Positions 8,433 to 31,198 of a DNA stretch of 44,442 bases are shown in pieces (within the stretch, counting starts at the first letter, position 1; each line of letters opens with the position of its first letter). This DNA comes from Candidatus Margulisiibacteriota bacterium (GTDB lineage Bacteria; Margulisbacteria; WOR-1; O2-12-FULL-45-9), in contig JAYEOW010000019.1 in assembly GCA_034723395.1 (NCBI GenBank), positions 1 to 44,442 of the forward strand, read 5' to 3'. Made by a program: the position numbers and the translations under genes. Below the pieces are notes generated by a model that saw only the letters and a list, made by a program, of their open reading frames with translations, was not told the DNA's origin and did no database searches.

Positions 8433-8461
8433 TATATCGACAATTTTTGGTGAAAATTTCA
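8433..8461 (-). promoter_or_regulatory. Sigma-28-like promoter motif TGAAA-N16-TCGATATA
   Basis: Upstream of the three-gene GT2/GH26 operon; one of nine copies of the motif. Confidence 0.75.
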
Positions 8462-8553
8462 GATAATTTTGGGGATTAAAGGAGCCTTGGGTTGATCGAA
8501 AAATGGAGCGCGGTAATGCCGAGGCCGTAATAGGCGGCAAAAAAGACCTTTAT

Positions 8554-9900
8554 TTAAATGATCTCTATTTTTTTGGTAAGGGAATCGATCGCGCCGCCGC
8601 CGGCCGGGGAATAAACCATTTTTCTTTCGAAGCTCGAACCTTTATCCAGCTTTCCTCCCAGGAACAGGCACTCGTTCAACAAAGAGTCCTCTTTAATTAT
8701 ATTCGGTCCTTCTCTTTCATAAGGAGCGGGGAAGACTACGCTCCTATAAAGGCGTGAATTCTGGCCGATTTGGCTATTTTCACCAATAACTGAGTTGTCG
8801 ATCCTAACTTTGGGGCCGATTATACAATTATCGGCGATAAGGGAATTATCAATGCGGGCTGACGGATCAATATAAACATTATGCCCGCGCCATCCCCATG
8901 CTTCTCGATGGAATCTGTCCAGACCGCCGTCAATTTTACCGGCTAAAACGTCCATATTGACCTGCCGGATGTCTTCTCCAAAACCAACGTCTCTCCAATA
9001 AAATTGATCCGGGATAATAAATGCGTTGAGCGGGAACCGTAATTGATTTTCCGGTTGACTGAGCCATTTGAAAATGTGCCTTCCCCAGTCTGAAAAGGGG
9101 ACCGGTCCCCCGGGTTGATATAGATCAGGGAAGAGGGGGTCTTCTTTACCTTTTTTAGTCATCATGGTGAGCAATGTTCTTAGCACCAGGGCGTTAAAGA
9201 TATAAATAGAAGAATTAGTAAGGTTGCTCAAGCAGGCATCATTTTGATCATTATCGAAGCGCGGCCTCTTTTCCTGGAATTCGACGATCTTTGCGCTGGC
9301 GTTTTGATTTTCCCTGATCCAGGTTCCTACCGCATCTTCAAATTCAATCTCAGTTCTATAGTTTTTCCGTTCAGGCATCCCCTTTAATCTCACCGTGCCG
9401 AAACGATGGATCTGATCCCAGGGGTAGCGATTAACTGTTATTGTGGCAGCGGCTCCCGAGCTCAGGTGATTTTCTAAAATTAAATCAAGCGGAACATTGT
9501 GGACGATATCCGAACTTTGGACAAGGATGATATTCTCCTGGTTTGAGTCCCAGTCGCGGTTCTTAGCGACGGATGCTACCGGGCCCGCTGTATCCAGCGG
9601 GTCCTGATATCTTTCGCTGATATATTCCGGCCGGAAACCATCTTTGGGTCTGACAATGCGTTCGATGGTATGGGCTAGATGCCAGACTGTAATAAACGCT
9701 CTGTCTAGCCCGATTTTTTTGAGTGGATCGAGGCTGTAATCAATACTGCGTTTGGATCCGATGGGGACCACTGCCTTGGCGATCGGATAGCGGTTGCGCT
9801 GCGGATCGCACACTGCGTTTAGTCTTCCGCCGTATCCACCGCCCAAAATTACGGGTTTTAGCCGGCCTTTCTGTATTAGTGTTGTAAGGTTAATTGCCAT
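8554..9900 (-). CDS. NDP-sugar pyrophosphorylase (mannose-1-P guanylyltransferase/GlgC-like) with C-terminal left-handed beta-helix
   Basis: ILGGGYGGRL, KAVVPIG, DTAG, SSDIV, EFQEK, YWRDVG, and hexapeptide repeats (IDNSLIADNCIIG). Confidence 0.85.
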   Translation of the reverse strand: MAINLTTLIQKGRLKPVILGGGYGGRLNAVCDPQRNRYPIAKAVVPIGSKRSIDYSLDPLKKIGLDRAFITVWHLAHTIERIVRPKDGFRPEYISERYQDPLDTAGPVASVAKNRDWDSNQENIILVQSSDIVHNVPLDLILENHLSSGAAATITVNRYPWDQIHRFGTVRLKGMPERKNYRTEIEFEDAVGTWIRENQNASAKIVEFQEKRPRFDNDQNDACLSNLTNSSIYIFNALVLRTLLTMMTKKGKEDPLFPDLYQPGGPVPFSDWGRHIFKWLSQPENQLRFPLNAFIIPDQFYWRDVGFGEDIRQVNMDVLAGKIDGGLDRFHREAWGWRGHNVYIDPSARIDNSLIADNCIIGPKVRIDNSVIGENSQIGQNSRLYRSVVFPAPYEREGPNIIKEDSLLNECLFLGGKLDKGSSFERKMVYSPAGGGAIDSLTKKIEII

Positions 9901-9920
9901 TGTGTGTTTCCACCTATGAA

Positions 9921-9949
9921 GTTATCGACGTAAACCCAAGGAGATTTCA
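9921..9949 (-). promoter_or_regulatory. Sigma-28-like promoter motif TGAAA-N16-TCGATAAC
   Basis: 20 nt upstream of ATG 9900. Confidence 0.75.
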
Positions 9950-9970
9950 CTATTTTTCAAAAATCTTTTT

Positions 9971-10008
9971 AAAAAAAGGACAAACGGTTGAAGATTACGC
10001 GTTTGTCC
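9971..10008 (-). terminator. Rho-independent terminator
   Basis: Stem GGACAAACG(9978-9986)/CGTTTGTCC(10000-10008) followed by 7 T on the minus strand, just after the stop of 10026..12068. Confidence 0.7.
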
Positions 10009-10025
10009 TGATAAGTTTTAGGATC

Positions 10026-12068
10026 TTAGGCTAATTCTAATTCCTTGACAAGTTTACTCACAATAGTGGTTGCGCCGTTTTCGAAGAGAAACTGCCAGGA
10101 GAGAGCTTGAAACGCTTTTTTTATTTTTTGGATGCCGGGCTTGTCAATTTCTATTTCTCGGGCGTAACGGACGACTCTTTTGAATTTTTTTTCTAAAAAA
10201 AATAGTTTTCGTTCGTTGGGGACACTCTCATTGTATTTTCCTAAAAGAAAAACCAGCTCTCCTTCATTTGCGTCTTCCTGTCGATTGCAGATAAGGATGT
10301 ACGAAAGATTATCTTCGGATTTATGTCCTGTCCAAACCCGGCGTTCTTCAAAGACCATGCTTTTAATATCTTGGGCCTCTATTTCTGTTCCGGCTCTAGA
10401 ATTGTATTTGTCCGCAGAACCTCTTCTTGAGTCAGGATTAACGCGCAGCATGACTTTATCTCCCTGCATGCGTGCTTCATACACCAGCGAACCTTCAACC
10501 TTGAAGACTTCGGAGAGGGCCTCTAAATGATGGAGATGCCTTGCTTTGGTCCTTTTTGTAAACCAGGGATGGTCAAGAATGGTTCCTATAGTTAAAGGAG
10601 ATTTGTCAGCCAGCTTTGTTATTAGGGCAAAGGGATGATCGGGGACGACTACGCCGGCGGTTGTAAATTGACTGAGAAATTGTCTAAACCCTTTTTGGGA
10701 ATCCTTTTGCCGCATGGTTTCTAGGGTGAGTGGAATATCTTTGCGAACTTTTAATCCTTGTAATGGGAAGTCTCTTGTTACATAGGCGGTTGGCAGCATC
10801 AGATTGATGTCGCCCTGGGGAGTTGCGTTGAAGATTCTTAACGCGCCATCTTTCAATTCTTTGATTTCGAGACGAACCGGCAAGCCTCCGTCTTCCACGG
10901 CATTAAATTTATTCAGAGGAAATGGATAATGGTTAAAATTCCGATTCAACCAGAGAATATTTCTAAGAGCTTTATGGTATTCTGGGTTTTCAATCCCATC
11001 TGTTAATTTACTAGGGGGCAAACCGAGTTGAAAACTTTCGATAACCACCGCTCTTCCTTTTTGCGAGGTCAGAGTGTCGAAAAGCTGCGGGTCAAATCCA
11101 TACATTCCTCCCTTTTGGGGTTCATCTTTTTGCTGAACGATTTCCATTACCATTCTGTATCCTTTCAGTGCAAATTGCATGGCGATGGCGATTCCACGGA
11201 AGTCAATAGGTTCGCCGAAGTAGCCAAGATCCTCGACGTTATACGAAACATAATCTTGCATAGTTCCTAGTATTTTTTTGTACTGCCGTTTTGAGACACT
11301 GATTTTATTGCCGGTATCTGGATCTACGGTGAAAATCGTGTCCTCCATGCAGACCTGCATGGACACGATGCCGTGGTTGTGTAGATAGCTGTTTTTTGGA
11401 TCAGGTCTTAATATGCCGTTTTCAAGAACCAGGCCGGGATAGAATTTCGAAGATAGAAACATAACATTTTCAGGCTTAAAGCCGAAGAAGTCGAATTTTC
11501 TAAAGGTTTCGAGAGTTCTTGCTTCGCTTTTTTCATTGGGAATGATAAGCATTTTCTGCCTGGCTAATACATTTGTCCAATGCTCTCCCCCCATCTCTTT
11601 GGCCAAATTGTGTATCCAGAAAGCTTTTTGCAGCATATGTCTTTCTCCCAGGGATAGACCCAGGAGCTTGCCAAATCCTTTGGCCTCGATTTCAAAAGCT
11701 AATTCTTTGGGTGTTATAAAGAACTTTTCGCCAAACTTTACTTTACGTGCACTATCTCTTAGTCTTGAGGCAGCCCCGCCTACGGTATGTTCAGCAAAAA
11801 ACATTCCACTTAAGACAATTATTTTTGCAGCATGGAGTTCTAGGGGGGTTACATTGATCGAGCTGCGAGTGACCAGACTGTCGGGATTGCGGTCCACATT
11901 TTCAAGACCCTGATATCTGAGAAGCTCAACCTGGGACTGTTTTAGATCTCGCATGCTTGCTTGGGAAAGTTTTTGACCGAAATGTTTCTGAAGTTTTGCC
12001 TGGGCAACGTCACGGAAGCTCCGCATATAGGTTTCATGTGACCTTAAATCTAGGCGCATTCTACTCAT
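10026..12068 (-). CDS. Divergent UDPGP/UAP-family (eukaryote-type) sugar-1-phosphate uridylyltransferase with C-terminal extension
   Basis: GGAASRL (cf. GG.GTRL), HNHG (cf. PxGHG), YNVEDL (cf. NVDNL), QKGG, N.NFN in family order. Confidence 0.6.
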   Translation of the reverse strand: MSRMRLDLRSHETYMRSFRDVAQAKLQKHFGQKLSQASMRDLKQSQVELLRYQGLENVDRNPDSLVTRSSINVTPLELHAAKIIVLSGMFFAEHTVGGAASRLRDSARKVKFGEKFFITPKELAFEIEAKGFGKLLGLSLGERHMLQKAFWIHNLAKEMGGEHWTNVLARQKMLIIPNEKSEARTLETFRKFDFFGFKPENVMFLSSKFYPGLVLENGILRPDPKNSYLHNHGIVSMQVCMEDTIFTVDPDTGNKISVSKRQYKKILGTMQDYVSYNVEDLGYFGEPIDFRGIAIAMQFALKGYRMVMEIVQQKDEPQKGGMYGFDPQLFDTLTSQKGRAVVIESFQLGLPPSKLTDGIENPEYHKALRNILWLNRNFNHYPFPLNKFNAVEDGGLPVRLEIKELKDGALRIFNATPQGDINLMLPTAYVTRDFPLQGLKVRKDIPLTLETMRQKDSQKGFRQFLSQFTTAGVVVPDHPFALITKLADKSPLTIGTILDHPWFTKRTKARHLHHLEALSEVFKVEGSLVYEARMQGDKVMLRVNPDSRRGSADKYNSRAGTEIEAQDIKSMVFEERRVWTGHKSEDNLSYILICNRQEDANEGELVFLLGKYNESVPNERKLFFLEKKFKRVVRYAREIEIDKPGIQKIKKAFQALSWQFLFENGATTIVSKLVKELELA

Positions 12069-12112
12069 TTTTTATCATCCCTTTCTAAAATATTTCTGTT
12101 TGGTCCTATTTA

Positions 12113-12141
12113 TATATCGATGAAAAACAAGAAAAATTTCA
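12113..12141 (-). promoter_or_regulatory. Sigma-28-like promoter motif TGAAA-N16-TCGATATA
   Basis: In the 80-nt gap upstream of ATG 12068. Confidence 0.75.
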
Positions 12142-12148
12142 CTTAATT

Positions 12149-13474
12149 TTAGGATTTAATATTTTTATAGTAAATTATCGAGGTCACACTTGCGGCATCT
12201 TCCGGAGTGTTTCCCCTGCCGCCTTTGCCAAGCGAGGCAGCCCTTTGGTTAACAAGCTTGCTTGATGATTCGCTGTACATGGTTACTTCAGAGCCATTTC
12301 CCAGCGCGACCGCAGCTTTTGCCCCAAGCTTTACCATGGTTTCTGCCGCTTCTTCCATGATAGGACCGTCCTTAAAAGGAATGCCGTCAAATGTGGCAGC
12401 GATGCCCGCTCCGGTTGCGGAAATTCCGAGCATGGTTAAAGGACATCTTGATCTCCTGATTTGTTTGAAGGTGACTTCTCTATTTTCCATATCAAGGGAA
12501 AAATCATGTTCGGTATAACCTGATCTGATGAGCGCTTTCTGGACCATCTGTGAATCCAGTTCCACCGTTTCGATTTTTCCGGGGATAGCGATCCCGGATT
12601 CTAATGCGTTTATGATTTCACTTTGGGTTACGATGGGGCAGGTTTCATTGGGCTTAATAAAGCGTCTCATGGTCGCGAATTTTGGAATTGTAAAGGCGAC
12701 TTCCTGTCCCTTTATCGCAGCCTCAGCAAGTTCAGGGCTATCTGCCATTTGCTGTGCCCCAAGGGATCCTCCGCATTTTTCCACCCTTTCCACGCTGAAA
12801 CTATGTCCGGGTTTTAGCAGTGTAAATCTTGGCAAACGAAAAATATGGGTGAAGTTTCCCGTAAATGATCGATAGAGGCTGCTTTCTATTAAATCTACTG
12901 CTTTGGCATCTCTAACCGTCTGCTGTCCGTATATTGCATGAATAACGTCAGGGGCCTCTCTCAGATTTCCCCCTTTAATTGTAAGATCTCCAATATCAAT
13001 TCTGCCGTCCTGTAAAATTGTGAAACATGAGCGGGCACCATCTGGATTTTGGCGGCTGGTATAAAACTCTCTTGTGCTTCCTTCTGTCCGAAGGAGAATA
13101 TCGTATGGATGAGAGAATAAATTATTTCCGTTTGTTGCAGCTATTATTTTTGCCGGTGGATGTGTTTGTCTAAAATCCTGCAAATATTGAGCGAAATTCT
13201 GGATATGGCTAAAACAGGCTCCCGGATTAAGCTGCCAATGTTCTTTTACTTGGTCCATGCCTTCGCTAAATAAAGGATAAAGCTTTATTGCCTGAGGATC
13301 AAAAATCAGGATTGTCACCCTTGACTGGCCGGTGTTTCCAGCCAATGGATTGTAACCAAAGTTTACGGTTGCCTGTTCTATTTTGTGGAAGCGGCTCTTT
13401 TCCAAAACACGATTATTTTTCGGCGCAAGAGCTCCCTGTAAATTTATCCAAGGTCGAAATCCGACTGATTTCAT
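12149..13474 (-). CDS. Divergent phosphodiester glycosidase (NAGPA/DUF2233-like) protein
   Basis: IAATNG (cf. AAINGG), RCPLTMLG (cf. HPRTAIG), DG...G...EEAAETMVKLGAKAAVALGNGS (cf. LGA..A.NLDGGGS). Confidence 0.6.
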   Translation of the reverse strand: MKSVGFRPWINLQGALAPKNNRVLEKSRFHKIEQATVNFGYNPLAGNTGQSRVTILIFDPQAIKLYPLFSEGMDQVKEHWQLNPGACFSHIQNFAQYLQDFRQTHPPAKIIAATNGNNLFSHPYDILLRTEGSTREFYTSRQNPDGARSCFTILQDGRIDIGDLTIKGGNLREAPDVIHAIYGQQTVRDAKAVDLIESSLYRSFTGNFTHIFRLPRFTLLKPGHSFSVERVEKCGGSLGAQQMADSPELAEAAIKGQEVAFTIPKFATMRRFIKPNETCPIVTQSEIINALESGIAIPGKIETVELDSQMVQKALIRSGYTEHDFSLDMENREVTFKQIRRSRCPLTMLGISATGAGIAATFDGIPFKDGPIMEEAAETMVKLGAKAAVALGNGSEVTMYSESSSKLVNQRAASLGKGGRGNTPEDAASVTSIIYYKNIKS

Positions 13475-13479: not shown

Positions 13480-13508
13480 ATTATCGAGAGTTTTTATAAA
13501 TAATTTCA
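13480..13508 (-). promoter_or_regulatory. Sigma-28-like promoter motif TGAAA-N16-TCGATAAT, probably leaderless
   Basis: Only 5 nt between the motif and ATG 13474; no RBS. Confidence 0.75.
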
Positions 13509-13557: not shown

Positions 13558-13586
13558 TGCAATTTTCACTAAAAGTTAACGATAAT
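13558..13586 (+). promoter_or_regulatory. Sigma-28-like promoter motif TGCAA-N16-ACGATAAT
   Basis: 8 nt upstream of ATG 13595. Confidence 0.7.
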
Positions 13587-13594: not shown

Positions 13595-14668
13595 ATGAGC
13601 ATGAATAGAATATCTAGATTTATAATTCAAAAAAGAATGGACTATCGAGGGAGCTCTTTTATGGAACGGGACCTAAGGTTGCGGGCTTACCGTGATTCGG
13701 GCTTGCAGGATAAGGCTCTCCGTCGCGAAGTTGTTGATGCGGCGGTCGATCCTAGACATTATTATAGTCTCCCTTTAATCGCCGCGCTAAGAGATATTCA
13801 TATTCTCACTACTCCCTGGCAGCCGATCACTTTTGAGTCGATCTCACAGCGTTTTATTGCAGCCAACTCACTGTCGGTGGTTGAAGCCGTGATCGGACAT
13901 GTATTTGAGAGTGGGTGGGGGAGGCAGGCGGGAGATCAAAGATTACAACATTTATCGATGCGAGCTTGCCATCCCCACATTGAAATGGGGCAGACGCAAG
14001 AGCTTCTATCCGCTTTTGGGATAAATCCGCATTATTATATACCTGCAAGACATCCTTGGAATCTTAATCCGGAGTGGTTTTTTGGGACTTATCACAATGT
14101 GATAGAAGGACTTATTAAAGATATAGCATTAAAGGTCTGTGAGCGCTTTACCAGCGATCCGATGGATCGGGCGAGACTCCTTTCTCTTTCATTAATAATA
14201 GAGAGTGCTTTACGGCTAGAATTAAGAAAGATAATCCCTCACGATTATCTTTCGGACCAGGAAATTGCGGATGCGCGAAGGTTAACTGATATGTTGACCG
14301 AAGAGCATTCTCCCTGGATAAGGAGCGCTTATCATTTTACCAGGAAAGAGCTTTTTCCCAGTATTTTAGAGCATGGATTAAATGTTGATTATTTTCCCGA
14401 AGGGGTGGAACAGCCAGATATAGTCTGTTTTAATAATTTCCAGAGGGCAGGGGCGTCGGATATCGCTTTAGGATTTAACGGGTATTATGTCCGAGATATA
14501 TTATTGAGGGTCCCGCTTGAAAGTGTTGGCCCAGGACATAAGTCAATTTCCCAAGAACTGGGAGATTATAATGCCGATTACCAGGCAACGCAGGTTCCGG
14601 TCGATAGGATATCGGTGGTTGATCCTTATAATTCTACGCGGGTGATCCCTTTAGCCGAGTTTGTTTAA
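13595..14668 (+). CDS. Hypothetical protein with C-terminal ADP-ribosyltransferase/KptA-like fold
   Basis: AYHFTRKELFPSILEHGL (cf. LYHxT....L.SIL..GL), VCF, LLRV, DY...QVPVDRI. Confidence 0.5.
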   Translation: MSMNRISRFIIQKRMDYRGSSFMERDLRLRAYRDSGLQDKALRREVVDAAVDPRHYYSLPLIAALRDIHILTTPWQPITFESISQRFIAANSLSVVEAVIGHVFESGWGRQAGDQRLQHLSMRACHPHIEMGQTQELLSAFGINPHYYIPARHPWNLNPEWFFGTYHNVIEGLIKDIALKVCERFTSDPMDRARLLSLSLIIESALRLELRKIIPHDYLSDQEIADARRLTDMLTEEHSPWIRSAYHFTRKELFPSILEHGLNVDYFPEGVEQPDIVCFNNFQRAGASDIALGFNGYYVRDILLRVPLESVGPGHKSISQELGDYNADYQATQVPVDRISVVDPYNSTRVIPLAEFV

Positions 14669-16263
14669 GCCTCGTCTGCCCGCAGATCGATTGCTTCATA
14701 ATAAATAGCTTCGTAAAGTTCTGCGGCCCTTGACCACGAATTATTTTGCCGCATAGCTTGTGTGCTCATCTCTAAATATTTTTCCTGGTCACCTTGATAT
14801 ACATTGCTAGCCCGCCGAATCCCTTCAATGATATGGATTACACTGGAGCCACCCAAATGAAATCCTGTACTCATGTCTTTGATTGTATCAGCTAGCCCTC
14901 CAGTGCGGTTAGCAATAACTGGTAATCCAAGCTTTAAGGCCTTTAACTGGCCAAGGCCGCACGGTTCAAATTGTGAAGGCATTGAAAGATAGCTTCCACC
15001 GGCCAAGACTAATGCTTCCAGATTCTCCCGTGTAAGGATAGGGGAGACATCATCATCAAAACCAAAGATAGCGACGCGATTGGGAAATTTGCTGCCAAGA
15101 TCGCGAATTCTTTCTTCATAAGTCTCTCCTTTGGCTTCTGACCCGACGGTGGCAAAATAGAGACGAGGATTCTCTTTCATCAATGTATGAAGCGCGGCGA
15201 TCGTCGCATCGGTCCCTTTTTGTTCTGCCCAGCGGCCGGTCGCGGAGAGGATCAAACTATTATCGTCAATATTTAATTGGCCGACTTCGGCCAAAAGTTT
15301 TCGAGCGGCCATTCTCCCGCCTAAATTGTCAGGGGAATATTTTTCTGGCAACGATCCATTCTCTACGAAACGTTCTACACAATAATTGTCAGGAATCCCG
15401 TTGAGGACGGCACGGGTTCTCTCTTCGATGCTCTGGAGCAGACCATCATATAGCTTGGCCGGCATCGGTACGTCCCCTGAAATTGCTTCCTTTCTATAAG
15501 TAGGACTTACAAAAACGACCCTATCGGCAAACCTAAAAGCGGCTTTATGGGGATCGATCCTGCCAAAAAATTCCATCCCTTCAGTGCTATATGCCCAGGG
15601 ATTATTTTCACCGGTTAAATGCCTAAAATCCTCCATCGAGATCGGAGTTGTATAAGTAAGGTTGTGCACATTATAGACAAAAGGGAGCTTTTTTAGCTTT
15701 GGGTCAAAATGCCTTAAAAAATATCCGAGAAATCCGGTCGCCCAGTCGTGCCCATGGATAAGGTCGGGAGTAGTTATCCGCCGATTACCGTTGGTATATT
15801 CGTATTGCGTCCGGCTGTAAAAATCGGCCGCTACTTTATCAAAGAACAAGAAACGTGAGGCGTCATCCGGGTATCCGTAAATCCGATTCCGGTTCCCAAA
15901 CCAGTTTCCCGCCTTAGTATCGACAAAGTAGTATTTTATAAACTCCGGACGGTTAGCGCCAAGGGGGATATCCATACTTAAAATCCAGGTTTCAACCTCT
16001 GGGTGATGGCCGAGTTTCATGGTTAGGTTAGGGGCGGGGCGTATATCAACTTTTTGTCCGCGGAAATGGACATCTCTGATTGCCCGTTCGATTGTTCCGG
16101 TAAAGGAGGGGACAAAGACCGAGACCGAATGTCCTCTCTGCACTAACGCTTTAGAGAGGCCGTGGACGGCATCCGCTAATCCGCCGGTTGTCCGCAGCGG
16201 CGGAATCTCCGGGGTAACCATCCATATATGTAACGGTCTTCTATTTGTTCTCGTTGCTCGCAC
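14665..16263 (-). CDS. glgA: Glycogen/starch synthase, GT5 (divergent)
   Basis: TPEIPPLRTTGGLAD, IHGHDWATG, VHNL.Y, VSPTY, GRWAEQKG, MPSQFEPCGLGQL, TGGLADTI. Confidence 0.85.
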   Translation of the reverse strand: MRATRTNRRPLHIWMVTPEIPPLRTTGGLADAVHGLSKALVQRGHSVSVFVPSFTGTIERAIRDVHFRGQKVDIRPAPNLTMKLGHHPEVETWILSMDIPLGANRPEFIKYYFVDTKAGNWFGNRNRIYGYPDDASRFLFFDKVAADFYSRTQYEYTNGNRRITTPDLIHGHDWATGFLGYFLRHFDPKLKKLPFVYNVHNLTYTTPISMEDFRHLTGENNPWAYSTEGMEFFGRIDPHKAAFRFADRVVFVSPTYRKEAISGDVPMPAKLYDGLLQSIEERTRAVLNGIPDNYCVERFVENGSLPEKYSPDNLGGRMAARKLLAEVGQLNIDDNSLILSATGRWAEQKGTDATIAALHTLMKENPRLYFATVGSEAKGETYEERIRDLGSKFPNRVAIFGFDDDVSPILTRENLEALVLAGGSYLSMPSQFEPCGLGQLKALKLGLPVIANRTGGLADTIKDMSTGFHLGGSSVIHIIEGIRRASNVYQGDQEKYLEMSTQAMRQNNSWSRAAELYEAIYYEAIDLRADEA

Positions 16264-18414: not shown

Positions 18415-18822
18415 ATGGTTAGAATGAAACCGAAATTTTCTGGATTTAGAAAGCGGGGGGAGAAGGTCTTCGAAAAGGGCGGGATATATATGCTCGAAGG
18501 AGAAGGGACCGACATCGGCTGTAATCTGGTTTTCCAGGAGGATATCTTTAGACCGTCATTCCTTGAGATGGAGGTGCGGGGGAAGATCGATAAAGGGGCG
18601 GAATGGACCCGGCTGCGGATCGAGATCTATGATAAAGGGAAGCCGGATGAGCCAGCCGACTCTTTTGAAGGTGATTACTTAAATCTTGATCTAAGCGAAG
18701 AACTGTTTAAGAAGCTAACTTTTCCGGTCTTAGGGATTGTAAAATGCCCGAGCAAGGTCCAGTTTATGATCGTTGGGCCCTCCAGTTCGAAGCTTGAAGT
18801 CAAAAACGTCTCTATCAGGTAA
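18415..18822 (+). CDS. Hypothetical beta-rich protein, first gene of the GH26/ABC operon
   Basis: Stop overlaps the next start (TAATG). Start moved to ATG 18415, after the extended -10. Confidence 0.6.
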   Translation: MVRMKPKFSGFRKRGEKVFEKGGIYMLEGEGTDIGCNLVFQEDIFRPSFLEMEVRGKIDKGAEWTRLRIEIYDKGKPDEPADSFEGDYLNLDLSEELFKKLTFPVLGIVKCPSKVQFMIVGPSSSKLEVKNVSIR

Positions 18823-22149: not shown

Positions 22150-23870
22150 TTTCTATGAAATTAAGAATTACCAAGTCAGAATTAAGAAGAAAATCACAAT
22201 TTTTAATTCCCATTGGAGTTTGGTTATTAGTTATTATTTCATCATTCTGGTTTCTTAATTCGTCATTTGCCACTGCTATGTCTAAAGCCGCTAATGGCGG
22301 GGACGTAAAGGAGAACGAAGGTGTTTTTGTGGGTGTTTTTCGTGAAGGGGCACCGCGGAACATTAATTATATAAAGAAATATGAGAAAAAGACCGGCAAC
22401 AAGCCGGCGATGATCATGTGGTACCAGGATTGGGCGCAAAATTTCCCGTGGGACGCGGCAACCAGTGTTATAAATTATGGGGCGGTCCCGCATATTGTCT
22501 GGGAGCCATGGTACTGGAGCGATCATAGCAAGATCAAACTGCAGGACATTGTTGATGGTAAATGGGACCGTTATATCGAGACCTGGGCGAAGGAGATCAA
22601 GAATTTCCGCCACCCGGTATTTTTAAGGATCGCCCACGAGTTCAATATCGAAGGCTATCCGTGGGGGATCGTAAATAACGATAAGGACCCCGATTTGTAT
22701 ATCAAAGCCTACCGCCATATCGTTGACATTTTCAATAAAGAGAAAGTTAAGAATGTTAAATGGGTCTGGTGTTTCATGAACTATTCTCATCCGGATGAGT
22801 CGTGGAACGACTGGGAAAAGGCTTATCCTGGAGATGAGTATGTGGACTGGGTCGGGATCGACGGCTACAACTGGGGGACTACCCAGAGCTGGAGCGACTG
22901 GCAGGCATTTAATTATATGTTTCGCGAACAGATGCGACGTTCCAAAAAACTATGGCCGGGGAAACCAATTATGGTCGCCGAGTTTGCCTCAGCGACCAAG
23001 GGTGGCGATAAGGCGGCCTGGATAAAAGAGATCCCGGGATACCTTAAGAGCAGTATGCGGGATATCGACCTGATCATCTGGTTCGATCTCAAAAAAGAGG
23101 CGGATTGGAGGATTGCTTCGGATAAAAAATCTTTGGCGGCTTATAAGGAGATCATGAAAGACCCGATCTTTTTGAGTTCCGGGGATGACCTGGCCAATCT
23201 AAAAATACCGTCTAAAATAAAAGAGAAAAAAGTTGTATACGCGCAAAGAGCGAACTCGAAAATTACCATCGATGGATCATTAGCTGACTGGAATAAGTCT
23301 TCCCCGTTGGTCATGAAAGATAAATCATATTTTAAAGAAGGGAAACATTGGGGAGGAACCAAAGATCTTTCGGGGAGCGCTTATCTGATGTGGGACGACG
23401 AGAATCTTTATCTGGCAGCGGTTATTGCGGACAAAATTCCGCTGGTCAATGAGCAGGTCAAACAGAATATTTGGAATGGTGACGCGATCGAGATGGTACT
23501 AAGCGTAAATCCAAAAGCAGACCCAAAGCGAACCTCTTTTCGGCGCGGCGACTACCAGGTAGGGCTTGGAACCGGAGACGGGAAGAAAAACGCTCCAACC
23601 ATCTGGAACTGGCAGAGAAGAAGGGTCCCAAAAGGGAGTGAGATCAAAGTTAGAAAGACCAGCAGCCCATTGGGCTATGTGCTCGAAGCCAAGATCCCGT
23701 GGGCATTTTTTAGCATGAAAACGGCGCCTGCCAAAGGGATGAAATTAGGGTTTGATATCGCCTTTGACGATGCTGATTACACAGGCAAGCGTGAAAGGCA
23801 ATTTATCTGGAATGGCGACTATATGTTTTACAAGGATCCGAGCGTTTGGGGGCTCATGGAACTCAGGTGA
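22146..23870 (+). CDS. GH26 glycoside hydrolase with C-terminal CBM9/DOMON-like sugar-binding domain
   Basis: WEPW, RIAHEFN, YPGDEYVDWVGIDGYN, PIMVAEFA; then ITIDGSLADW, WDDENLYLA, GDAIE, YVLEAKIPW, GFDIAFDDAD. Confidence 0.9.
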   Translation: MISMKLRITKSELRRKSQFLIPIGVWLLVIISSFWFLNSSFATAMSKAANGGDVKENEGVFVGVFREGAPRNINYIKKYEKKTGNKPAMIMWYQDWAQNFPWDAATSVINYGAVPHIVWEPWYWSDHSKIKLQDIVDGKWDRYIETWAKEIKNFRHPVFLRIAHEFNIEGYPWGIVNNDKDPDLYIKAYRHIVDIFNKEKVKNVKWVWCFMNYSHPDESWNDWEKAYPGDEYVDWVGIDGYNWGTTQSWSDWQAFNYMFREQMRRSKKLWPGKPIMVAEFASATKGGDKAAWIKEIPGYLKSSMRDIDLIIWFDLKKEADWRIASDKKSLAAYKEIMKDPIFLSSGDDLANLKIPSKIKEKKVVYAQRANSKITIDGSLADWNKSSPLVMKDKSYFKEGKHWGGTKDLSGSAYLMWDDENLYLAAVIADKIPLVNEQVKQNIWNGDAIEMVLSVNPKADPKRTSFRRGDYQVGLGTGDGKKNAPTIWNWQRRRVPKGSEIKVRKTSSPLGYVLEAKIPWAFFSMKTAPAKGMKLGFDIAFDDADYTGKRERQFIWNGDYMFYKDPSVWGLMELR

Positions 23871-23896
23871 AATTATCTGGGCGATCGTCCGATAAA
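23868..23896 (+). promoter_or_regulatory. Sigma-28-like promoter motif TGAAA-N16-CCGATAAA (internal to the operon)
   Basis: Overlaps the upstream stop codon; followed by an AAGGAG RBS. Confidence 0.65.
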
Positions 23897-23913: not shown

Positions 23914-24639
23914 GTGATTGTTATGAAAATAGTTAGTTTGTTAGTTTGTCTAATGTTACTTGCCAGCAGCGGATTGGCAATGGGGGGGCCTTCTCCGGAA
24001 ATAGAGGAAGAGGGAGAAAGGGCGGTAAAAACCATTGCCGGGAATAAATATTTGATTGACGATTTTGAATCAGGCAGTTTAGGGTCTCCTCGCGATTGGT
24101 GGACATTTGATATTCAAAGTGCGGAGATCGCTTCGAATGATGACCTGATCCTGGGAGGCGAAGAGGTAGCGCGCAACGTCGGTAAATATTCGGTCGGGTT
24201 AAAGGGAAAGGCCAAGAATTGGTATGGCGGAGGGATTGGAACCTACGTGGCTAAAGAGAACCAGGACCTTTCGAATTTTAATTCATTTTCGGTAGATATT
24301 TACGGCAATGGTTCGGGAACCGCAAAGATCGAGCTTTATGATGACGATAACGGCAACTGGCAGATCGAACAAAATCGGGAGCAAAACTATAAGCCGTTGT
24401 ACGATGATAAATTAGTTTATGATGTCGTGATCGACTGGAAAGGGTGGAAGAACGTATCGGTCCTGCTGGATGATTTTGTCGATGATAACCCGGGAGTTGG
24501 AGACGATGTCTGGAATCCGGAGCAAAATGGAGAATCTGGGGGATTGCTGCAGCTGCAGATTATCTCTTTGGCTGACGAAGAAACCGGTAAAATAGATTAT
24601 AATCTCGATAATATTTACCTGACCGTAGACGAAGAATAA
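23914..24639 (+). CDS. Secreted carbohydrate-binding (CBM11/CIA30-like) protein
   Basis: Signal peptide; LIDDFE, DLSNFNSFSVDIYGNGSG, IDWKGWKNVSVLLDDF, LDNIYL. Start may be ATG 23923. Confidence 0.65.
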   Translation: MIVMKIVSLLVCLMLLASSGLAMGGPSPEIEEEGERAVKTIAGNKYLIDDFESGSLGSPRDWWTFDIQSAEIASNDDLILGGEEVARNVGKYSVGLKGKAKNWYGGGIGTYVAKENQDLSNFNSFSVDIYGNGSGTAKIELYDDDNGNWQIEQNREQNYKPLYDDKLVYDVVIDWKGWKNVSVLLDDFVDDNPGVGDDVWNPEQNGESGGLLQLQIISLADEETGKIDYNLDNIYLTVDEE

Positions 24640-24642
24640 TAA

Positions 24643-25518
24643 TTGAAGAAATTAATCCTTGTTGTATTAATAGCGATCAGCTTGGTCCCGCCGGCAGCGG
24701 CCAGTAGTGGAAGTGCCTCCGCGCATCCCCACGTTTTTTTAGAGCTTTGGAACAACCTGTCATACTATGACACCAACCTGGAGCGGTCGCGTTTCGCGTC
24801 GGTGTCAGGAAGATTTGAGGGGAAGGTGGGCCTTAATTTTTTTAATTATCCTCTTCAGTTTTACGGTGTTTATTACGGGGTTTCATCGCAGGACCCGAAT
24901 TATTATAATAATTCTCTTTTTTCAGGTGGTGGCGTGCGCGTGATGCCGTTTGGTGGACTAAGGGGACGGGGGATATTGGCCGATGTTATGCGGGAAGTAA
25001 AAATTTATTACGAGGATCTCTCTTCGAGTTATATGAAAGATGCTGCTTCGGCCGAAGCGGCGGGACTAGCTAAGACCGATAAAAGATACGGGATAGAAAT
25101 TTACCGCGAATGGAATTTGGATAATCCCGATTTTGGGGCGCCCTGGGGGGAGCTTTGGCTTAAATGTGATTATCGGGAGACAAACTTTGGCTGGGAAGAG
25201 TTTAATAACTACATTCTTTATTTCCAGCCAAAATTTGGACGCCATTTGGGAGACGGGATCGAAATTTATCTGCGTGCCGACGTAACCGCTTCCGGGAAAG
25301 AGGGACCTGCTTATTCATTTTTAAATATTGCCGATTATGGAGTAGGATTAAGATTTGAACCATGGAGACAGATTGGTCAAAAGGATGATCTCTTTCACAA
25401 ATTTAAAATGTTTGCAGAAGTATTGGGAGTTTCCTATTTAAAGGATAAACCGGCAAGCGCCGCTAATATGGTCGATTCGGATGTTCGCTTTGGCATTGAG
25501 TTCTCTTACGGAAGATAA
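24643..25518 (+). CDS. Exported protein, probable outer-membrane beta-barrel
   Basis: Signal peptide, aromatic alternating strands, C-terminal VRFGIEFSY. Confidence 0.55.
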   Translation: MKKLILVVLIAISLVPPAAASSGSASAHPHVFLELWNNLSYYDTNLERSRFASVSGRFEGKVGLNFFNYPLQFYGVYYGVSSQDPNYYNNSLFSGGGVRVMPFGGLRGRGILADVMREVKIYYEDLSSSYMKDAASAEAAGLAKTDKRYGIEIYREWNLDNPDFGAPWGELWLKCDYRETNFGWEEFNNYILYFQPKFGRHLGDGIEIYLRADVTASGKEGPAYSFLNIADYGVGLRFEPWRQIGQKDDLFHKFKMFAEVLGVSYLKDKPASAANMVDSDVRFGIEFSYGR

Positions 25519-26091: not shown

Positions 26092-27066
26092 TTAAAAGCT
26101 GGTATCTACGGAGAAGCCCCAACGTTCGTATTGTTGATCTACAACTGTTTGAATTACGTTTTGGGGACTAATCAGATCGTATCCTTCTCCATAAGCTTTT
26201 TCGAAATCCGACGGTCTTAGGCCATGGCTGGAAGTGTGGTGGCGGGCCAGCGTTAGCATTTTTTCATTTTCTTTTTGCACCTCAGTTTTAGGGGCGCGCA
26301 GGCTGTGTTCGAGATCGACCACGTTAAGTGATGGCATGCTTAAAAACGGTTCAATAACCGGGATCCCGCCCGTTAATATTCCAAAGGTGTTTACGATAAT
26401 AAACGAAAACGCGTCGGTTTGATTTCCGGGATCAAAAAGAAGGTGTCTAAGTTTATAATCGCCGTGCAGGAGTCCTTCTGTTTCTTTGACACATGCCAAG
26501 GCCCCAAGGTGAAGGGCAAAAGCGTGGTAGAGGCGCGAATTGCCGGAAGGCAAAGGGACCTGATAGCTTGATTTATAATCTTGAGCGAGTTTTGCTCCGA
26601 TCGTGCCTAATTTATAGGCCATGTGTAATGTCTCTCCTTTAAGCATATAGGGTTGGGGAGCGCTCAGGATTATCTGGTGACCCTCGGTATAATGTCTTAG
26701 TACATGGCTCCAAAGATCCAACATTAAAAATTCCCACACCTGCAATACAGATTTGCGCTCCTTGCTCTTGGAAAATAGCTGAAAAGTTCGAATGCCAGTG
26801 GAACGTTGCGGGAAAATAAACATTGATTCCCGCTGGACCGTAGAGCTTAGGTCTTTTTCTGATCGATAATTGTGATAATTATCTAGTGCATCAATTTCGC
26901 GGTCTTCGCGCTTGCGCGGGACGCAGCGGATTGATCCTCCTTTTTGTCCCAATAGCCACGCCGGCCGCGAGCTTAAGGCCTTTTTTATCTCGGCCATCCT
27001 GGCAATAACTCTGGCTCGTGAATAGGACGGATTATTTGGAAATAATAAATTAAGATTCAGTTTCAT
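26092..27066 (-). CDS. Orphan protein with a kinase-like fold
   Basis: GLLHGDYKLRHLL catalytic-loop-like motif and VVDLEHS (DFG-equivalent). Confidence 0.55.
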   Translation of the reverse strand: MKLNLNLLFPNNPSYSRARVIARMAEIKKALSSRPAWLLGQKGGSIRCVPRKREDREIDALDNYHNYRSEKDLSSTVQRESMFIFPQRSTGIRTFQLFSKSKERKSVLQVWEFLMLDLWSHVLRHYTEGHQIILSAPQPYMLKGETLHMAYKLGTIGAKLAQDYKSSYQVPLPSGNSRLYHAFALHLGALACVKETEGLLHGDYKLRHLLFDPGNQTDAFSFIIVNTFGILTGGIPVIEPFLSMPSLNVVDLEHSLRAPKTEVQKENEKMLTLARHHTSSHGLRPSDFEKAYGEGYDLISPQNVIQTVVDQQYERWGFSVDTSF

Positions 27067-27076
27067 AACTCTAGTT

Positions 27077-27105
27077 ATTATCGGCTATTTTTGGAAAGGA
27101 TTTCA
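27077..27105 (-). promoter_or_regulatory. Sigma-28-like promoter motif TGAAA-N15-GCCGATAA(T)
   Basis: Contains the exact FliA -10 consensus GCCGATAA, 10 nt before ATG 27066. Confidence 0.8.
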
Positions 27106-27112
27106 TTAAATA

Positions 27113-27121
27113 TGTTAGAAT
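27113..27121 (+). promoter_or_regulatory. Extended -10 TGTTAGAAT for mfd
   Basis: 8 nt before ATG 27130; no RBS. Confidence 0.6.
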
Positions 27122-27129
27122 AAAACCAA

Positions 27130-30100: not shown

Positions 30101-30147
30101 AAGGGAAAGATAAGATTAACCTTGCTTTGCTAAGTATTGCTGGATAA
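27130..30147 (+). CDS. mfd: Transcription-repair coupling factor
   Basis: GEFSVRGGILD, GDYVVH.NYGIG (RID), GDVGYGKT, DEEQRFGV, QIRGRVGR, DLEIRGAGNLLG. Confidence 0.97.
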   Translation: MSLVKLLDPVKRSPYFSRQLSSLKRVGKAGFPGMIGSSSAAILAALADDLRNILIITSSSEKSEALKSEIKLFSGVGPTLFPAPDTLPGEEIKPSNELIGERLAVLNNGFEGIVVAPVMAVMWRTSRRLESIKVSVNQNIRLDELIKRLIEFGHKRFDIVGERGEFSVRGGILDIFPLNFEHPVRIELSGDKIESIRYFNAYSQRSTGRIEKVSILPAVENFEVPLFERLPKGTIVILDEPMEISRAADQHIEELAATDTDLQYLRFEDIEKYKNVELSSFLKPDEGGIFLSPKNYQNRLPEIPQKAIVVSKHAARLKEKVEAEVLKGSLRGGFILNETQILSDREIFGEEIVFRRKKSAVIEGVADELLADLTVGDYVVHENYGIGIYCGMETLDLEGVEQEYLLIEFAAGDKVYVPPSMAGLIEKYSSGRDFRPKLNRLGTKNWIRTKGRIKKELKDMTQDLLKLYAARKKLPGHAYPKDDLWQKELEGTFPFEETIDQSKAIAATKRDMEAPYPMDRLICGDVGYGKTEVAIRAAAKAVSAGKQVAVLVPTTILADQHYNNFKERFKTSPFMINMLSRFRSKKEQAEIVKVLGRGGVDIVIGTHRLLSKDIKFKDLGLLILDEEQRFGVAHKEKLKKIKLNVDVLTLSATPIPRTLYLSLSGSRDMSTINTPPVDRSPIRTYVLPWSGHVIREAILREIDRGGQIYFVHNIVETIDAVASKIKKLVPEAKIGIGHGQMSEKELEKTMVNFLERRFNVLVCTSIIESGLDITNVNTILIDNAERFGLSQLYQIRGRVGRSAARAYAYLFYHPEKIMSGQALERLKAIQEFTALGSGYKLAMRDLEIRGAGNLLGSQQSGHVMEVGFDLYCELLEEAVREVKGIKTVSAREVIIDLKVEAYIPEDYVTDDRQRIALYRRMNHLSTKEELSEMKKELRDRFGTLPGTLNRLFDILNLRVVAIKAGIVGIKEEGGKLLIDNLAGKRKKVEIKGKDKINLALLSIAG

Positions 30148-30439
30148 TATTTTTGTCGCGGACAACAACCAGGGGCTTCCCCTTGGGGGTCTTGATCGTA
30201 AGTTTTTCGGGGGTAACGTCAATATTGCCCACGCCCGAATCCTGGCGTGAAGACTGTGCCAGATAGTTCATAAGCAAGAGTTTTAAGACTTCGGGGTTCA
30301 GTTTATTTCCAAGGAAAATCTTCGGTTCAACCACAAATTCGGTGTGCTTTGCGGCAATAACGTGAGCGTCGCCTTGTTCCCTCCAAAGCTGTTTAAGCTT
30401 GGCTTCTAATTTTTCCAATGCGCTTTGTTCTCGTTCCAT
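30116..30439 (-). CDS. Hypothetical protein
   Basis: Third gene of a tightly coupled three-ORF operon (TAATG overlap, AGGAG upstream). Confidence 0.6.
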   Translation of the reverse strand: MEREQSALEKLEAKLKQLWREQGDAHVIAAKHTEFVVEPKIFLGNKLNPEVLKLLLMNYLAQSSRQDSGVGNIDVTPEKLTIKTPKGKPLVVVRDKNIIQQYLAKQG

Positions 30440-30864
30440 TATGCTGCGGCTCCTTGGGTTAACAATTGTTCTTCCTCTAAAGCGTTTACTGTATCTTTAT
30501 AAAGCTTGGTTCCTTTGCTGAGTAAGGCGATCATACGCAGGGTTTGCAATCTGGTCTCGGTGTTAGTTTTAATAGGTGGCTGATATTCAGCGGGGATCTC
30601 AGGGCCGTGAACTTCAAGTTTAACCGTGAACTTCTTAATCGGGATATCGGGAATGTTGCCGGCTAGAGCTGCGCCGGCTTTAATGGGCCTTCTTTCAAAA
30701 GTCTGGTGATGGGGACCTTTCTTGAACCGTTCAATGCCGGTTACGTATTCAAGGATGGCCTCGGCTGAAAGTTCAATGGCCGGATGGCCAGCCCCGGCGC
30801 CTTTAGCGAGCGGGGCCTGTATATTCCGGACAACCGGTTTTTGTACTAATGCTTCGCTTGCCAC
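30439..30864 (-). CDS. Hypothetical protein
   Basis: GTG start 1 nt after the upstream stop; GGAGG RBS. Confidence 0.65.
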   Translation of the reverse strand: MASEALVQKPVVRNIQAPLAKGAGAGHPAIELSAEAILEYVTGIERFKKGPHHQTFERRPIKAGAALAGNIPDIPIKKFTVKLEVHGPEIPAEYQPPIKTNTETRLQTLRMIALLSKGTKLYKDTVNALEEEQLLTQGAAA

Positions 30865-30865
30865 T

Positions 30866-31147
30866 TTAGCGTTTCCTCCATCCTATTTTTCCGTTCTTTA
30901 GGTCCTGCTTGATCATGGATGCCAAATAAGGCAGGTCGGTCGGTTTAACTCTGAAGCGACTGGCAAAAAATTCCATAACCGCCTTAGCTTTTTGGTTGGG
31001 ATCGAGGAGTGCTCTGTCGTCGTTAACCACGCGTTCCCCGTCAATATTTAAAAGGGCTAAAATATCGATGACTTCCATCGGAGATTTTAGCCCCAGGGCT
31101 TTAAGATTTGGACCTTGATTTTGCTGTGTTTTTTGCTTTACTGCCAT
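30866..31147 (-). CDS. Hypothetical protein
   Basis: GAGG RBS; preceded by a sigma-28-like motif. Confidence 0.65.
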   Translation of the reverse strand: MAVKQKTQQNQGPNLKALGLKSPMEVIDILALLNIDGERVVNDDRALLDPNQKAKAVMEFFASRFRVKPTDLPYLASMIKQDLKNGKIGWRKR

Positions 31148-31168
31148 AGTATTTCCTCGTCCACTATA

Positions 31169-31198
31169 TTTATCGTAGTTAGGGGTCTAAAACTTGCA
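31169..31198 (-). promoter_or_regulatory. Sigma-28-like promoter motif TGCAA-N17-ACGATAAA
   Basis: Upstream of the three-ORF operon; spacer one nt longer than the other copies. Confidence 0.55.

Follow-up and report, generated by a model that had tools for sequence, protein, structure and literature searches.

A FliA-type promoter family in Candidatus Saganbacteria and its probable link to a flagellum-derived type III system

Introduction

Promoters of the sigma-28 family (FliA/SigD/WhiG) follow the class 3 consensus TAAA-N15-GCCGATAA. The promoters described here, from a 44,442-nucleotide stretch of Candidatus Saganbacteria DNA (WOR-1, Margulisbacteria; hereafter the window), have an identical -10 core and, when their GAAA is aligned to TAAA, an equal 15-nt spacer, and the FliA-family sigmas of this organism are likewise encoded among flagellar export genes. 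They depart from the sigma-28 scheme in the GAAA -35 box, a second promoter class, a second sigma, the lack of a flagellin target and the inclusion of rpoD among the targets. Similarly, the host-dependent bacterium Bdellovibrio bacteriovorus uses a FliA-type promoter (TTAAG-N16-CCGATA) globally and largely for non-flagellar genes, although it has retained its flagellum and has a single described FliA gene; the available part of that report makes no mention of a shared N-terminal leader or of duplicated metabolic enzymes in the FliA regulon (PMC3627812).

Chlamydia secretes GlgA, GlgB, GlgX, GlgP, MalQ and phosphoglucomutase through type III signals that lie within their first 20 residues (PMC4829429). 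The likeness to our case lies in a glycogen synthase, a phosphorylase and a phosphoglucomutase with gained N-terminal signals, which in C. trachomatis act outside the bacterium (PMC4829429, PMC9251005), and this is a precedent for the export reading that we propose. Chlamydia relies on a secretin-bearing injectisome and a eukaryotic vacuole, whereas the machine here has kept the rod and L/P rings of a flagellum, its putative enzyme cargo consists of additional copies, and sigma factors and RelA are also among that cargo. Non-flagellar type III systems, including the Myxococcales form, also keep an export apparatus of flagellar origin without the filament; in the portion of the survey available, the Myxococcales systems are without FlgBC, FliEG and FlgH and injectisomes use a secretin (PMC3459982), whereas FlgB, FlgC, FliE, FlgH and FlgI are retained here. 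Finally, the giant archaeovorins of the Omnitrophota, predatory ultra-small bacteria, resemble our gene set in their divergent GT5, TPI, PGI, PGM, aldolase, PPDK, HEAT and TPR domains and in the sugar transporters and hydrolases nearby, but according to the excerpted text these enzymes are domains of one giant membrane protein beside a type II/IV-like system (bioRxiv 10.1101/2023.11.21.568195), and not separate genes with a common promoter and leader as found here.

Results

The repeated motif is a genuine promoter type, used dozens of times in the source genome (97% complete) and across the phylum. All nine sites of the original prediction were recovered just upstream of gene starts, with position and strand confirmed. 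They fall into two classes, both with FliA geometry: eight belong to class I (consensus TGAAAT-N16-CGATAW), and the ninth (31169-31198), which had been taken for an N17 variant, is instead a member of class II (YGCAAGTTT..CGATAW, that is GCAAGTTT...CGATAW). The -35 boxes are GAAAT in class I and CAAGT in class II, different from the TAAA box of sigma-28 promoters; according to both the matrix and the spacing scan, the CGATAA -10 box stands at the FliA spacing, in support of the sigma-28 geometry that had been proposed.

Seven exact matches to TG[AC]AA-N17-CGATAW were found in the window against 0.195 expected (200 Markov-1 simulations, maximum 2), and a genome-wide scan gave 68 motifs at the N17 spacing against 3-15 at each of 21 alternative spacings. 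A class I weight matrix trained on 46 sites from contigs outside the window detected 88 sites in the genome at a cut-off score of at least 16, and 0-3 when the -10 box was displaced by 1-4 bases. A same-strand start lies no more than 60 nt downstream of 68/88 sites, compared with 20/88 on the opposite strand and 8% for random positions. Genes start from 4-6 nt below the -10 box, 28/72 of them within 12 nt as in leaderless mRNAs; these starts come from ORF calling done for this analysis, and some are wrong.

Class I sites are present in all 55 WOR-1 genomes and in most other classes; the sites examined in relatives were 50 of 57 in genome G047, 50 stretches of the 75 G013 sites and 30 of 101 in G062. 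The source genome has about 80 class I operons, which hold enzymes and orphans and no flagellin, and 45 of the 72 first genes behind class I sites outside the window lack a Pfam match, in agreement with the expectation of mostly orphan targets. The claim that housekeeping genes are spared held inside the window and failed genome-wide: a class I site lies 17 nt before rpoD (C29:80538-80565), so class I is not confined to orphan genes, and others precede an RpoD-type sigma gene in G013 and a dnaG-like gene in G047.

The features of the window are as follows; percentiles refer to the leader score described below.

114..2234, minus strand: GH26 glycoside hydrolase with an N-terminal hydrophobic anchor (Pfam PF02156 above cut-off)
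2231..4789, minus strand: membrane protein of 852 aa; ED and QxxRW motifs of GT2-like type; leader at the 99th percentile, no promoter of its own
4791..8408, minus strand: membrane protein of 1205 aa with a strong basic leader (100th percentile); probably a split processive glycosyltransferase, of which it forms the first half
8433..8461, minus strand: class I promoter of the three-gene synthase/GH26 operon, at the same position in 7/8 related loci
8554..9900, minus strand: divergent GlgC-like sugar-1-phosphate nucleotidyltransferase with an extension of ~13 aa
9921..9949, minus strand: class I promoter (motif and matrix)
10026..12068, minus strand: UDP-sugar pyrophosphorylase-like protein (UAP family), 680 aa (profile match to solved UAPs, E 6e-9)
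12113..12141, minus strand: class I promoter (motif and matrix)
12149..13474, minus strand: protein with an NAGPA-like phosphodiester glycosidase domain (PF09992 above cut-off)
13480..13508, minus strand: class I promoter (motif), start codon 6 nt downstream (leaderless type)
13558..13586, plus strand: class I promoter, TGCAAT variant (motif and matrix)
13595..14668, plus strand: protein with a C-terminal ADP-ribosyltransferase-like domain (Atlas feature score 0.95)
14665..16263, minus strand: second, divergent glycogen synthase, Thr replacing Lys of KTGG; leader at the 99th percentile
16266..18356, minus strand: divergent alpha-glucan phosphorylase, the sole one found in the genome
18362..18390, minus strand: class I promoter, CAGAT variant, start 6 nt downstream (motif and matrix)
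18822..23870, plus strand: GH26 lipoprotein, two ABC sugar permeases and a GH26-CBM9 protein
23868..23896, plus strand: class I promoter; a similar gene stands behind a class I site in G062
23914..25518, plus strand: two proteins that do not fit the export reading (typical Sec signal peptides, basic leader absent)
26092..27066, minus strand: kinase-like protein with invariant Lys, Glu, HGD and DxE
27077..27105, minus strand: class I promoter with exact GCCGATAA (motif)
30116..31147, minus strand: three small unknown genes under a class II promoter (Pfam and NCBIfam matchless)
31169..31198, minus strand: class II promoter (YGCAAGTTT..CGATAW class)

The 1205-aa protein has two homologs only, and relatives show a similar two-gene layout or one longer ORF. 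In the 852-aa protein the E, D, Q, R and W are invariant across seven sequences, and Pfam, PDB, profile and fold searches returned no match; folding a homolog of the synthase with a 7-row alignment gave a poor model (pLDDT 46) that had no Foldseek match. The synthase occurs in 12/65 class genomes, with matches from other genomes at 26-39% identity, and was found only inside the order. The locus of nucleotidyltransferases, GT2-like synthase and GH26 genes under class I promoters is conserved. For the kinase-like family, whose N-terminus is conserved and not variable, PDB sequence and profile searches gave nothing significant. The polysaccharide synthase and the kinase-like protein of the original prediction were recognised by their conserved motifs, while its NDP-sugar supply (the UAP match and the nucleotidyltransferase), its glycogen enzymes (phosphorylase and glycogen synthase) and its ART-like protein were borne out. 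The GlgC-like protein has two shorter paralogs in the genome, both without the promoter; the 680-aa protein has homologs that form part of giant multi-enzyme proteins, alongside PGM, hexokinase, PGI or debranching domains, and an ordinary glgA is present on C38. For the ART-like domain the nearest named Atlas clusters are Arr, DarT/PARP and Tox-ART, Tpt1-like models reach a TM of ~0.5, and the single-sequence fold has a pLDDT of 38. The genes at 18822..23870, with no class I site directly upstream, are a candidate uptake module on the cell's own surface, and a PDB search with 23914-24639 found no match.

The genome encodes two FliA/WhiG-like sigmas, as the prediction of an alternative sigma required; for both the best family is TIGR02479 (135.6 and 75.1 bits, below the 189.6 cut-off). 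Sigma 1 is encoded within the rod operon and follows a perfect TTGACA-17-TATAAT. Sigma 2 occurs in 107/109 genomes, with 57-82% identity within the class, and lies no more than 1.6 kb behind flhA in 76/104; in flagellated genomes it does so in 11/12, and in the eight with two intact flhA copies it follows the lower-scoring one. For sigma 2, binding of a small partner of 68 aa is predicted (0.81, best control 0.00; contacts agree 100%, partner pLDDT at least 71), by a mark that 116/157 solved pairs and 2/215 mismatched pairs reach. The partner is fused to sigma 2 in G034 and G036, which argues against a simple secreted FlgM. A loose scan of six flagellin loci of flagellated relatives gave one sigma-28-like site, with a TAAA-type -35, which is not enough to draw on. 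The regulon had been called non-flagellar, which agrees with the lack of flagellin, but each of the two sigma genes is linked to operons of the flagellum-derived type III machine, so independence of class I from the flagellar system found no support.

FlhA is present in 105/109 genomes and flagellin in 13/109 (1/55 in WOR-1), and each of the 12 clearly flagellated genomes has a second flhA match. The machine of the source genome comprises rod, L/P rings, MS ring, ATPase, export gate and two FliK-like genes; flagellin/FlgL, FlgD and MotB were not found in it, nor was any PF00669 or PF03963 match for flagellin, hook-filament junction or hook cap. A 145-aa protein encoded at a distance from the cluster is its sole MotA/ExbB match, and it has no MotB plug, which occurs in 3/33 WOR-1 genomes; MotB-plug matches in 11/20 non-flagellated genomes of other classes count against the filament-less reading. 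Injectisomes are not known to carry the flagellum-specific flgB, flgC and fliE, all three of which are present here. No secretin was seen among the genes of the two machine operons, and FlhA scores 770.8 bits to flagellar FlhA versus 661 to SctV. FlhA being nearer the flagellar form and FlgB, FlgC, FliE, FlgH and FlgI being retained suggest a separate exaptation. Two 108-aa helical class II proteins (PDB sequence and profile searches blank) and an 1838-aa hydrophobic protein on C16 match nothing known; no needle, tip or translocon was identified, and a needle candidate has weak Atlas leads and was found in 6/109 genomes (one query).

Class I proteins have a common N-terminal leader, new to this work, whose form differs by lineage. 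In WOR-1 it is Arg/Pro-rich and acid-poor (residues 2-25: Arg 11.8% versus 4.9%, Asp+Glu 3.4% versus 9.1%), and a leader score gave a leave-one-out AUC of 0.88 (69 versus 1113 proteins). The N-terminus-minus-body contrast (p 7e-21) persists at equal gene GC, and a GC artefact was therefore rejected as its cause. When the score was trained without the window, 9/12 class I-controlled window genes reached at least the 94th percentile, two of them downstream genes outside the training, and 0/12 housekeeping genes exceeded the 90th. The score transfers to another WOR-1 family (27 versus 34 proteins, p 2.6e-6) and fails to do so in G047 (p 0.29) and G013 (p 0.26), after rows without a downstream ORF were dropped (3, 4 and 3 of 30). 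Two other classes carry a short K-hydrophobic-hydrophobic motif, for which the test is the count on unseen sites (G047, 9/19 versus 3/39; G013, 9/21 versus 2/24; 2/21 and 3/24 rows dropped likewise) and not the in-sample 17/27 and 9/26, on which we do not rely; about half of the class I targets of G047 and G013 are without it. As this motif is absent from WOR-1 (0/27, 1/75) and the score does not transfer, no one signal spans the phylum. Among the genes under class I are also rpoD and those of Sec-signal proteins and of small proteins that lack a leader.

Many class I proteins (glycogen and glycolytic enzymes, RelA, sigma factors, kinases) are divergent second copies whose housekeeping counterparts lack the promoter. 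Such counterparts exist for PGK, PFK, PGM, PPDK, RelA, dGTPase, GlgA and the nucleotidyltransferase, and mostly start at the domain. The N-terminus of the class I PGM, from comparison with E. coli Pgm, can presumably be explained without an extension. In WOR-1 the class I set includes glycogen and glycolytic enzymes, RelA/SpoT, sigma factors, kinases, phosphatases and ART; ARM, ankyrin and calpain domains are found in G013 and glycolytic enzymes in G047 and G062. One class I lipoprotein, found in 1/55 class genomes, has a twin-arginine signal above cut-off behind the leader, and TatC is missing in the source genome and in 37/39 WOR-1 genomes.

Discussion

From the motif with its two classes and its conservation, the gene linkage, the leaders and the paralog pairs, we infer which sigma reads which class, secretion, a host and the timing. 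The best explanation, to which we give a probability of roughly 0.6, is that the motif is the promoter of a late-substrate regulon of a filament-less, flagellum-derived type III system that would export host-reprogramming enzymes. The primary sigma would transcribe the rod/ring operon containing sigma 1, which in turn would read the class II promoters of the fliK-to-flhA export operon and of candidate extracellular parts. Class I would be read by sigma 2, whose gene follows flhA in most of the phylum, together with that of its small predicted partner. Most class I proteins would be leader-bearing, leave through the machine and act in or at a host cell, and a minority (the Sec-exported proteins, RpoD) would serve the cell itself. 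Several observations speak against this reading: multi-pass membrane enzymes as large as 850-1200 aa are rarely seen among type III substrates, the phosphorylase of the window has no second copy, the class I PGM can presumably do without an extension, the kinase-like N-terminus is conserved, the twin-arginine protein was found in 1/55 class genomes, the leader has no form common to the phylum, and no needle, tip or translocon was identified.

An intracellular life-phase regulon, comparable to the Bdellovibrio attack phase or the Chlamydia late genes, with the second copies as isozymes specific to one phase and the tails as tags for degradation or localisation, seems rather unlikely to us. The basic-hydrophobic N-termini do resemble ClpX tags, rpoD and Sec-exported proteins are under class I, and regulon enzymes often adjoin housekeeping glycolysis genes; moreover, in the available part of the Bdellovibrio report FliA controls 92/140 attack-phase promoters, many of them non-flagellar (PMC3627812). 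However, this reading leaves unexplained the linkage of sigma 2 to flhA across the phylum, the rapid turnover of the cargo against conserved sigmas (synthase in 12/65 genomes, sigma 2 at 57-82% identity), the ankyrin/ARM/calpain proteins of G013 and the twin-arginine protein of an organism that lacks TatC. A cyst- or spore-like programme, in which synthase and GH26/GH16 would build a polysaccharide coat and glycogen would be stored for dormancy, is improbable: although the conserved nucleotidyltransferase/synthase/GH26 locus, the glycogen synthase and phosphorylase in one operon and the several RelA/SpoT copies of the genome would suit it, Spo0A was not found in the genome, the synthase, found only inside the order, shares its leader with soluble enzymes, the bulk of the cargo is unrelated to dormancy, and the sigmas are linked to an export machine that has rings for the outer membrane and the wall. 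Of the developmental or host-interaction programme originally suggested, the host-interaction half fits best and the cyst/spore half found no positive support. That the motif is a regulator operator or a repeat is very improbable, since the opposite-strand starts near 20/88 sites and the lack of a mapped transcript start are set against two boxes at a fixed non-palindromic spacing, gene starts from 4-6 nt below the -10 box (28/72 leaderless-like) and two classes that match two FliA-type sigmas.

Under the export reading, the WOR-1 cargo of glycogen and glycolytic enzymes, sugar-nucleotide supply, polysaccharide synthase, RelA/SpoT, sigmas, kinases, phosphatases and ART suggests a prokaryotic host that would be rewired for carbon mobilisation. 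A wider picture is possible, and we offer it tentatively: Margulisbacteria, the sister group of Cyanobacteriota, could be parasites with a second, independent conversion of a flagellum into an injector, WOR-1 injecting about a hundred proteins (including a membrane polysaccharide synthase, a glycogen/glycolysis kit, ppGpp enzymes and sigma factors) into other prokaryotes, which would be made to produce sugars for harvest by the parasite's own GH26/ABC module, with a two-step sigma-28 cascade as a timer that would finally boost rpoD.

Saganbacteria are known from genomes only and have been described for their hydrogen metabolism; the main text of the main paper on them does not mention flagella, secretion or sigma factors. 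If true, our reading would mean a host-dependent lifestyle for the entire phylum. It would also mean that enzymes of metabolism and transcription can be delivered into prokaryotes by a type III system, and that flagella have given rise to delivery machines by a second route. With the class I promoter, candidate effectors can be listed for any Margulisbacteria genome independently of homology, and the domains of these proteins indicate the kind of host.

Two promoter classes of FliA geometry

The original prediction described nine copies of a sigma-28-like promoter in the window, and all nine sites were located exactly where it had placed them. The site at 31169, which had been counted as a copy of the same motif, belongs to a second class (class II, YGCAAGTTT..CGATAW). 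The window contained 7 exact matches against 0.195 expected, and in the whole genome (1.68 Mb, 97% complete) the motif was found 68 times at the observed spacing, compared to 3-15 times at each of 21 other spacings. A class I matrix trained on 46 sites, all on contigs other than the window, had the consensus TGAAAT(T)-N16-CGATAW and retrieved 88 sites genome-wide at a score of at least 16 (74 of them non-coding), compared to 0-3 when the -10 box was shifted as a control. A same-strand start was present within 60 nt of 68 of these 88 sites, and 28 of 72 nearby starts were at most 12 nt from the box, the pattern expected of leaderless messages. The class II matrix gave 27 matches, against 1-5 when shifted. 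The motif is a real feature, and it presents exactly the FliA geometry when GAAA is aligned to TAAA.

The class I pattern was present in all 55 WOR-1 genomes (7-183 copies each, control 0-3). Among 54 genomes from other classes, 53 contained it, 23 of them at least 10 times. Class II was found in 33 of 33 WOR-1 genomes and was sparse in 24 of 29 others. These tallies are counts and not tests because kin are not independent. The class I site of the synthase operon is retained in seven of eight related loci, with a variable spacer. Two contig ends (C2:180-207 and C44:180-207 of the source genome, G000) also carry identical class I sites, and C54 ends with a class I site adjoining one of class II (6400-6488), in each case with no called gene; these are probably unassembled repeated targets.

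Sigma factors and a predicted small partner protein

The source genome contains five sigma-70 region 2 matches above the cut-off and a 777-aa protein bearing sigma regions 3 and 4. Two of its sigmas are nearest to the FliA/WhiG family, though both fall under the curated cut-off. Sigma 1 (246 aa, found in 59 of 62 genomes) is encoded within the rod operon, which starts with a perfect TTGACA-17-TATAAT. Sigma 2 (196 aa, found in 107 of 109 genomes) follows flhA at a distance of no more than 1.6 kb in 76 of 104 genomes, the source genome being an exception in which the two are ∼19 kb apart on the same contig. Two places ahead of sigma 2 lies a gene that carries a class I site in four related loci; in the source genome its site is a variant. 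Relatives of one sigma gene bear the titles Margulisiibacteriota, Saganbacteria or WOR-1. In many relatives a gene of ∼90-130 aa (L048:1377-1712, minus strand) stands between flhA and sigma 2, often preceded by a class I site. We infer a cascade in which the primary sigma would act on sigma 1 (class II), this on sigma 2 (class I, self-amplifying), and sigma 2 on rpoD.

L048:1268-1474, minus strand: 68-aa gene that overlaps the sigma 2 start and encodes its predicted partner

Throughout the phylum a small gene is found in this place, and in two genomes (G034 and G036) it forms a fusion with the sigma. The complex model of the partner with sigma 2 scored 0.81 (best control 0.00), with 100% agreement of contacts and a partner pLDDT of at least 71; this mark was attained by 116 of 157 solved pairs and 2 of 215 mismatched ones, counts that are approximate as own alignments were used. 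The model supports the predicted binding of the partner to the first helix of sigma 2. Judging by its basic N-terminus of low complexity, the partner may be an exported inhibitor of the FlgM type, whereas the fusions suggest that it could instead be part of a co-sigma.

A flagellum-derived export machine

In the source genome, contig C55 encodes rod proteins, FlgA, the L and P rings, FliE, FliF, a short FliG, FliI and FliJ, and C46 carries a run of fliK, a 271-aa FlgE/G-like gene, fliM, fliN, fliO, fliP, fliQ, fliR, flhB and flhA, preceded by a class II promoter. A second FliK-like gene and an FlhB-C protein are encoded on C16. Flagellin/FlgL, FlgD and MotB were not found in this genome. Of 109 genomes across the phylum, 105 have FlhA and 13 have flagellin, and the 12 clearly flagellated genomes contain a second flhA match. 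Because 11 of 20 flagellin-less genomes of other classes have a MotB-plug match (G005, G008, G009, G015, G016, G018, G024, G025, G028, G030 and G034), motor loss is shown for WOR-1 only. The sole flagellin-family match among 55 WOR-1 genomes (G092:C4:62270-62632; 59 bits, 253-aa frame) is perhaps a contaminant, a transferred gene or a relic.

Several class II promoters are clustered on C16:

L081:3011-14764: one stretch of the class II cluster
L080:11932-13950: another stretch of the same cluster

Besides a GT2-TPR glycosyltransferase and two unknown proteins of 699 and 533 aa, this conserved cluster encodes two 108-aa proteins that resemble helical hairpins and one of 1838 aa that contains hydrophobic segments. 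Its gene order is identical in two other loci (L094 and L097), and it is a candidate needle/translocon module.

Genes under class I promoters

No Pfam match was obtained for 45 of the 72 class I first genes outside the window. Those with a match include PGK, PFK, PGM, PPDK-like proteins, GH16, GH116 and an ADP-ribosylglycohydrolase, as well as two RelA/SpoT, HD proteins, Ser/Thr kinases, PP2C, CheR, histidine-kinase domains, two odd sigma proteins and RpoD. In the window, the targets are a probably split GT2-like synthase with GH26, GlgC-like and UAP-like pyrophosphorylases, NAGPA-like, ART-like and kinase-like proteins, two Sec-exported proteins, and an operon of a phosphorylase and a glycogen synthase. 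Eight class I enzymes have housekeeping paralogs without the promoter; none was found in the genome for the window phosphorylase. In the glycogen synthase (14665-16263), the donor-binding KTGG motif has Thr at the position where the C38 copy keeps Lys, and to judge from this residue the donor specificity of the window copy may differ.

A GH26 lipoprotein, two ABC permeases and a GH26-CBM9 protein (window 18822-23870) are inserted amid class I genes, and further GH26 domains are encoded by the synthase operon and by a gene for 1706 aa within a class I operon on C29. The UAP-like domain of 10026-12068 is found in giant proteins of 1600-3900 aa (P0044, P0067, P0070, P0072, P0099, P0121 and P0125) with PGM, hexokinase, debranching enzyme, adenylate kinase or PGI domains. 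Other giant genes lie under class II sites (L082:6993-17990, 3665 aa; L036:5905-11640, 1911 aa) or behind a class I gene (C43:9212-23086, 4624 aa).

The cargo is not the same in every lineage. That of G013 has ARM, ankyrin and calpain domains, and that of G047 and G062 aldolase, TIM, PGM, PFK and PEP-utilising domains, alongside a single ankyrin protein, a single HEAT protein and a single SET protein.

An N-terminal leader

Class I proteins have Arg/Pro-rich, acid-poor N-termini (AUC 0.88), a bias much stronger there than in the bodies of the same proteins; a GC effect was ruled out as its source. The leader score predicted genes of the window that had been kept out of its training, two of which lie downstream in their operons, and transferred to another WOR-1 family and to neither of two other classes (G047 and G013). 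In these two, unrelated targets share M-x(few)-K-hydrophobic-hydrophobic-small; on sites fetched after this pattern had been fixed, it was present in 9/19 vs 3/39 for G047 (p 0.001) and 9/21 vs 2/24 for G013 (p 0.013).

L031:3209-4141, minus strand: class I protein with leader, twin-arginine motif and lipobox
L064:301-1338, plus strand: class I protein with leader, twin-arginine motif and lipobox

The twin-arginine signal behind the leader is limited to a single, lineage-restricted lipoprotein and one weaker look-alike, and TatC is absent from G000, the genome of this lipoprotein.

Proposed export of late substrates

The simplest account, to which we give a probability of about 0.6, is that flagellar logic has been reused, the late substrates expressed by a sigma-28 being enzymes with export leaders. 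The basal body would be built first, a substrate-specificity switch would follow (FliK and FlhB are kept), and sigma-28 would then turn on late substrates in which enzymes with leaders replace flagellin. The main rival, a phase programme acting inside the cell like that of Bdellovibrio, seems to us considerably less probable. If the enzymes are exported, the host of WOR-1 would probably be prokaryotic, because only prokaryotes and plastids would offer a setting in which sigma factors, ppGpp enzymes and a Tat lipoprotein could function. Two members of Margulisbacteria are known to have been observed, both host-bound. A termite-gut group is reportedly attached to spirochetes. Ruthmannia lives inside Trichoplax vacuoles, with thin tubes reaching the vacuole membrane, and the part of the paper covered here reports no secretion system for it (PMC6784892).

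Sigma-28 regulons that extend beyond flagellar genes are already known, and so, separately, are glycogen enzymes secreted by type III systems. Our literature search, which covered mainly open-access articles, returned no account of the promoter, machine or leader in Margulisbacteria, and term searches of PMC6349859 (main text) and PMC13277936 gave no mention of them; flagellar genes of the group may have been mentioned earlier in print. If export into prokaryotes proves true, the significance of the finding could be much greater.
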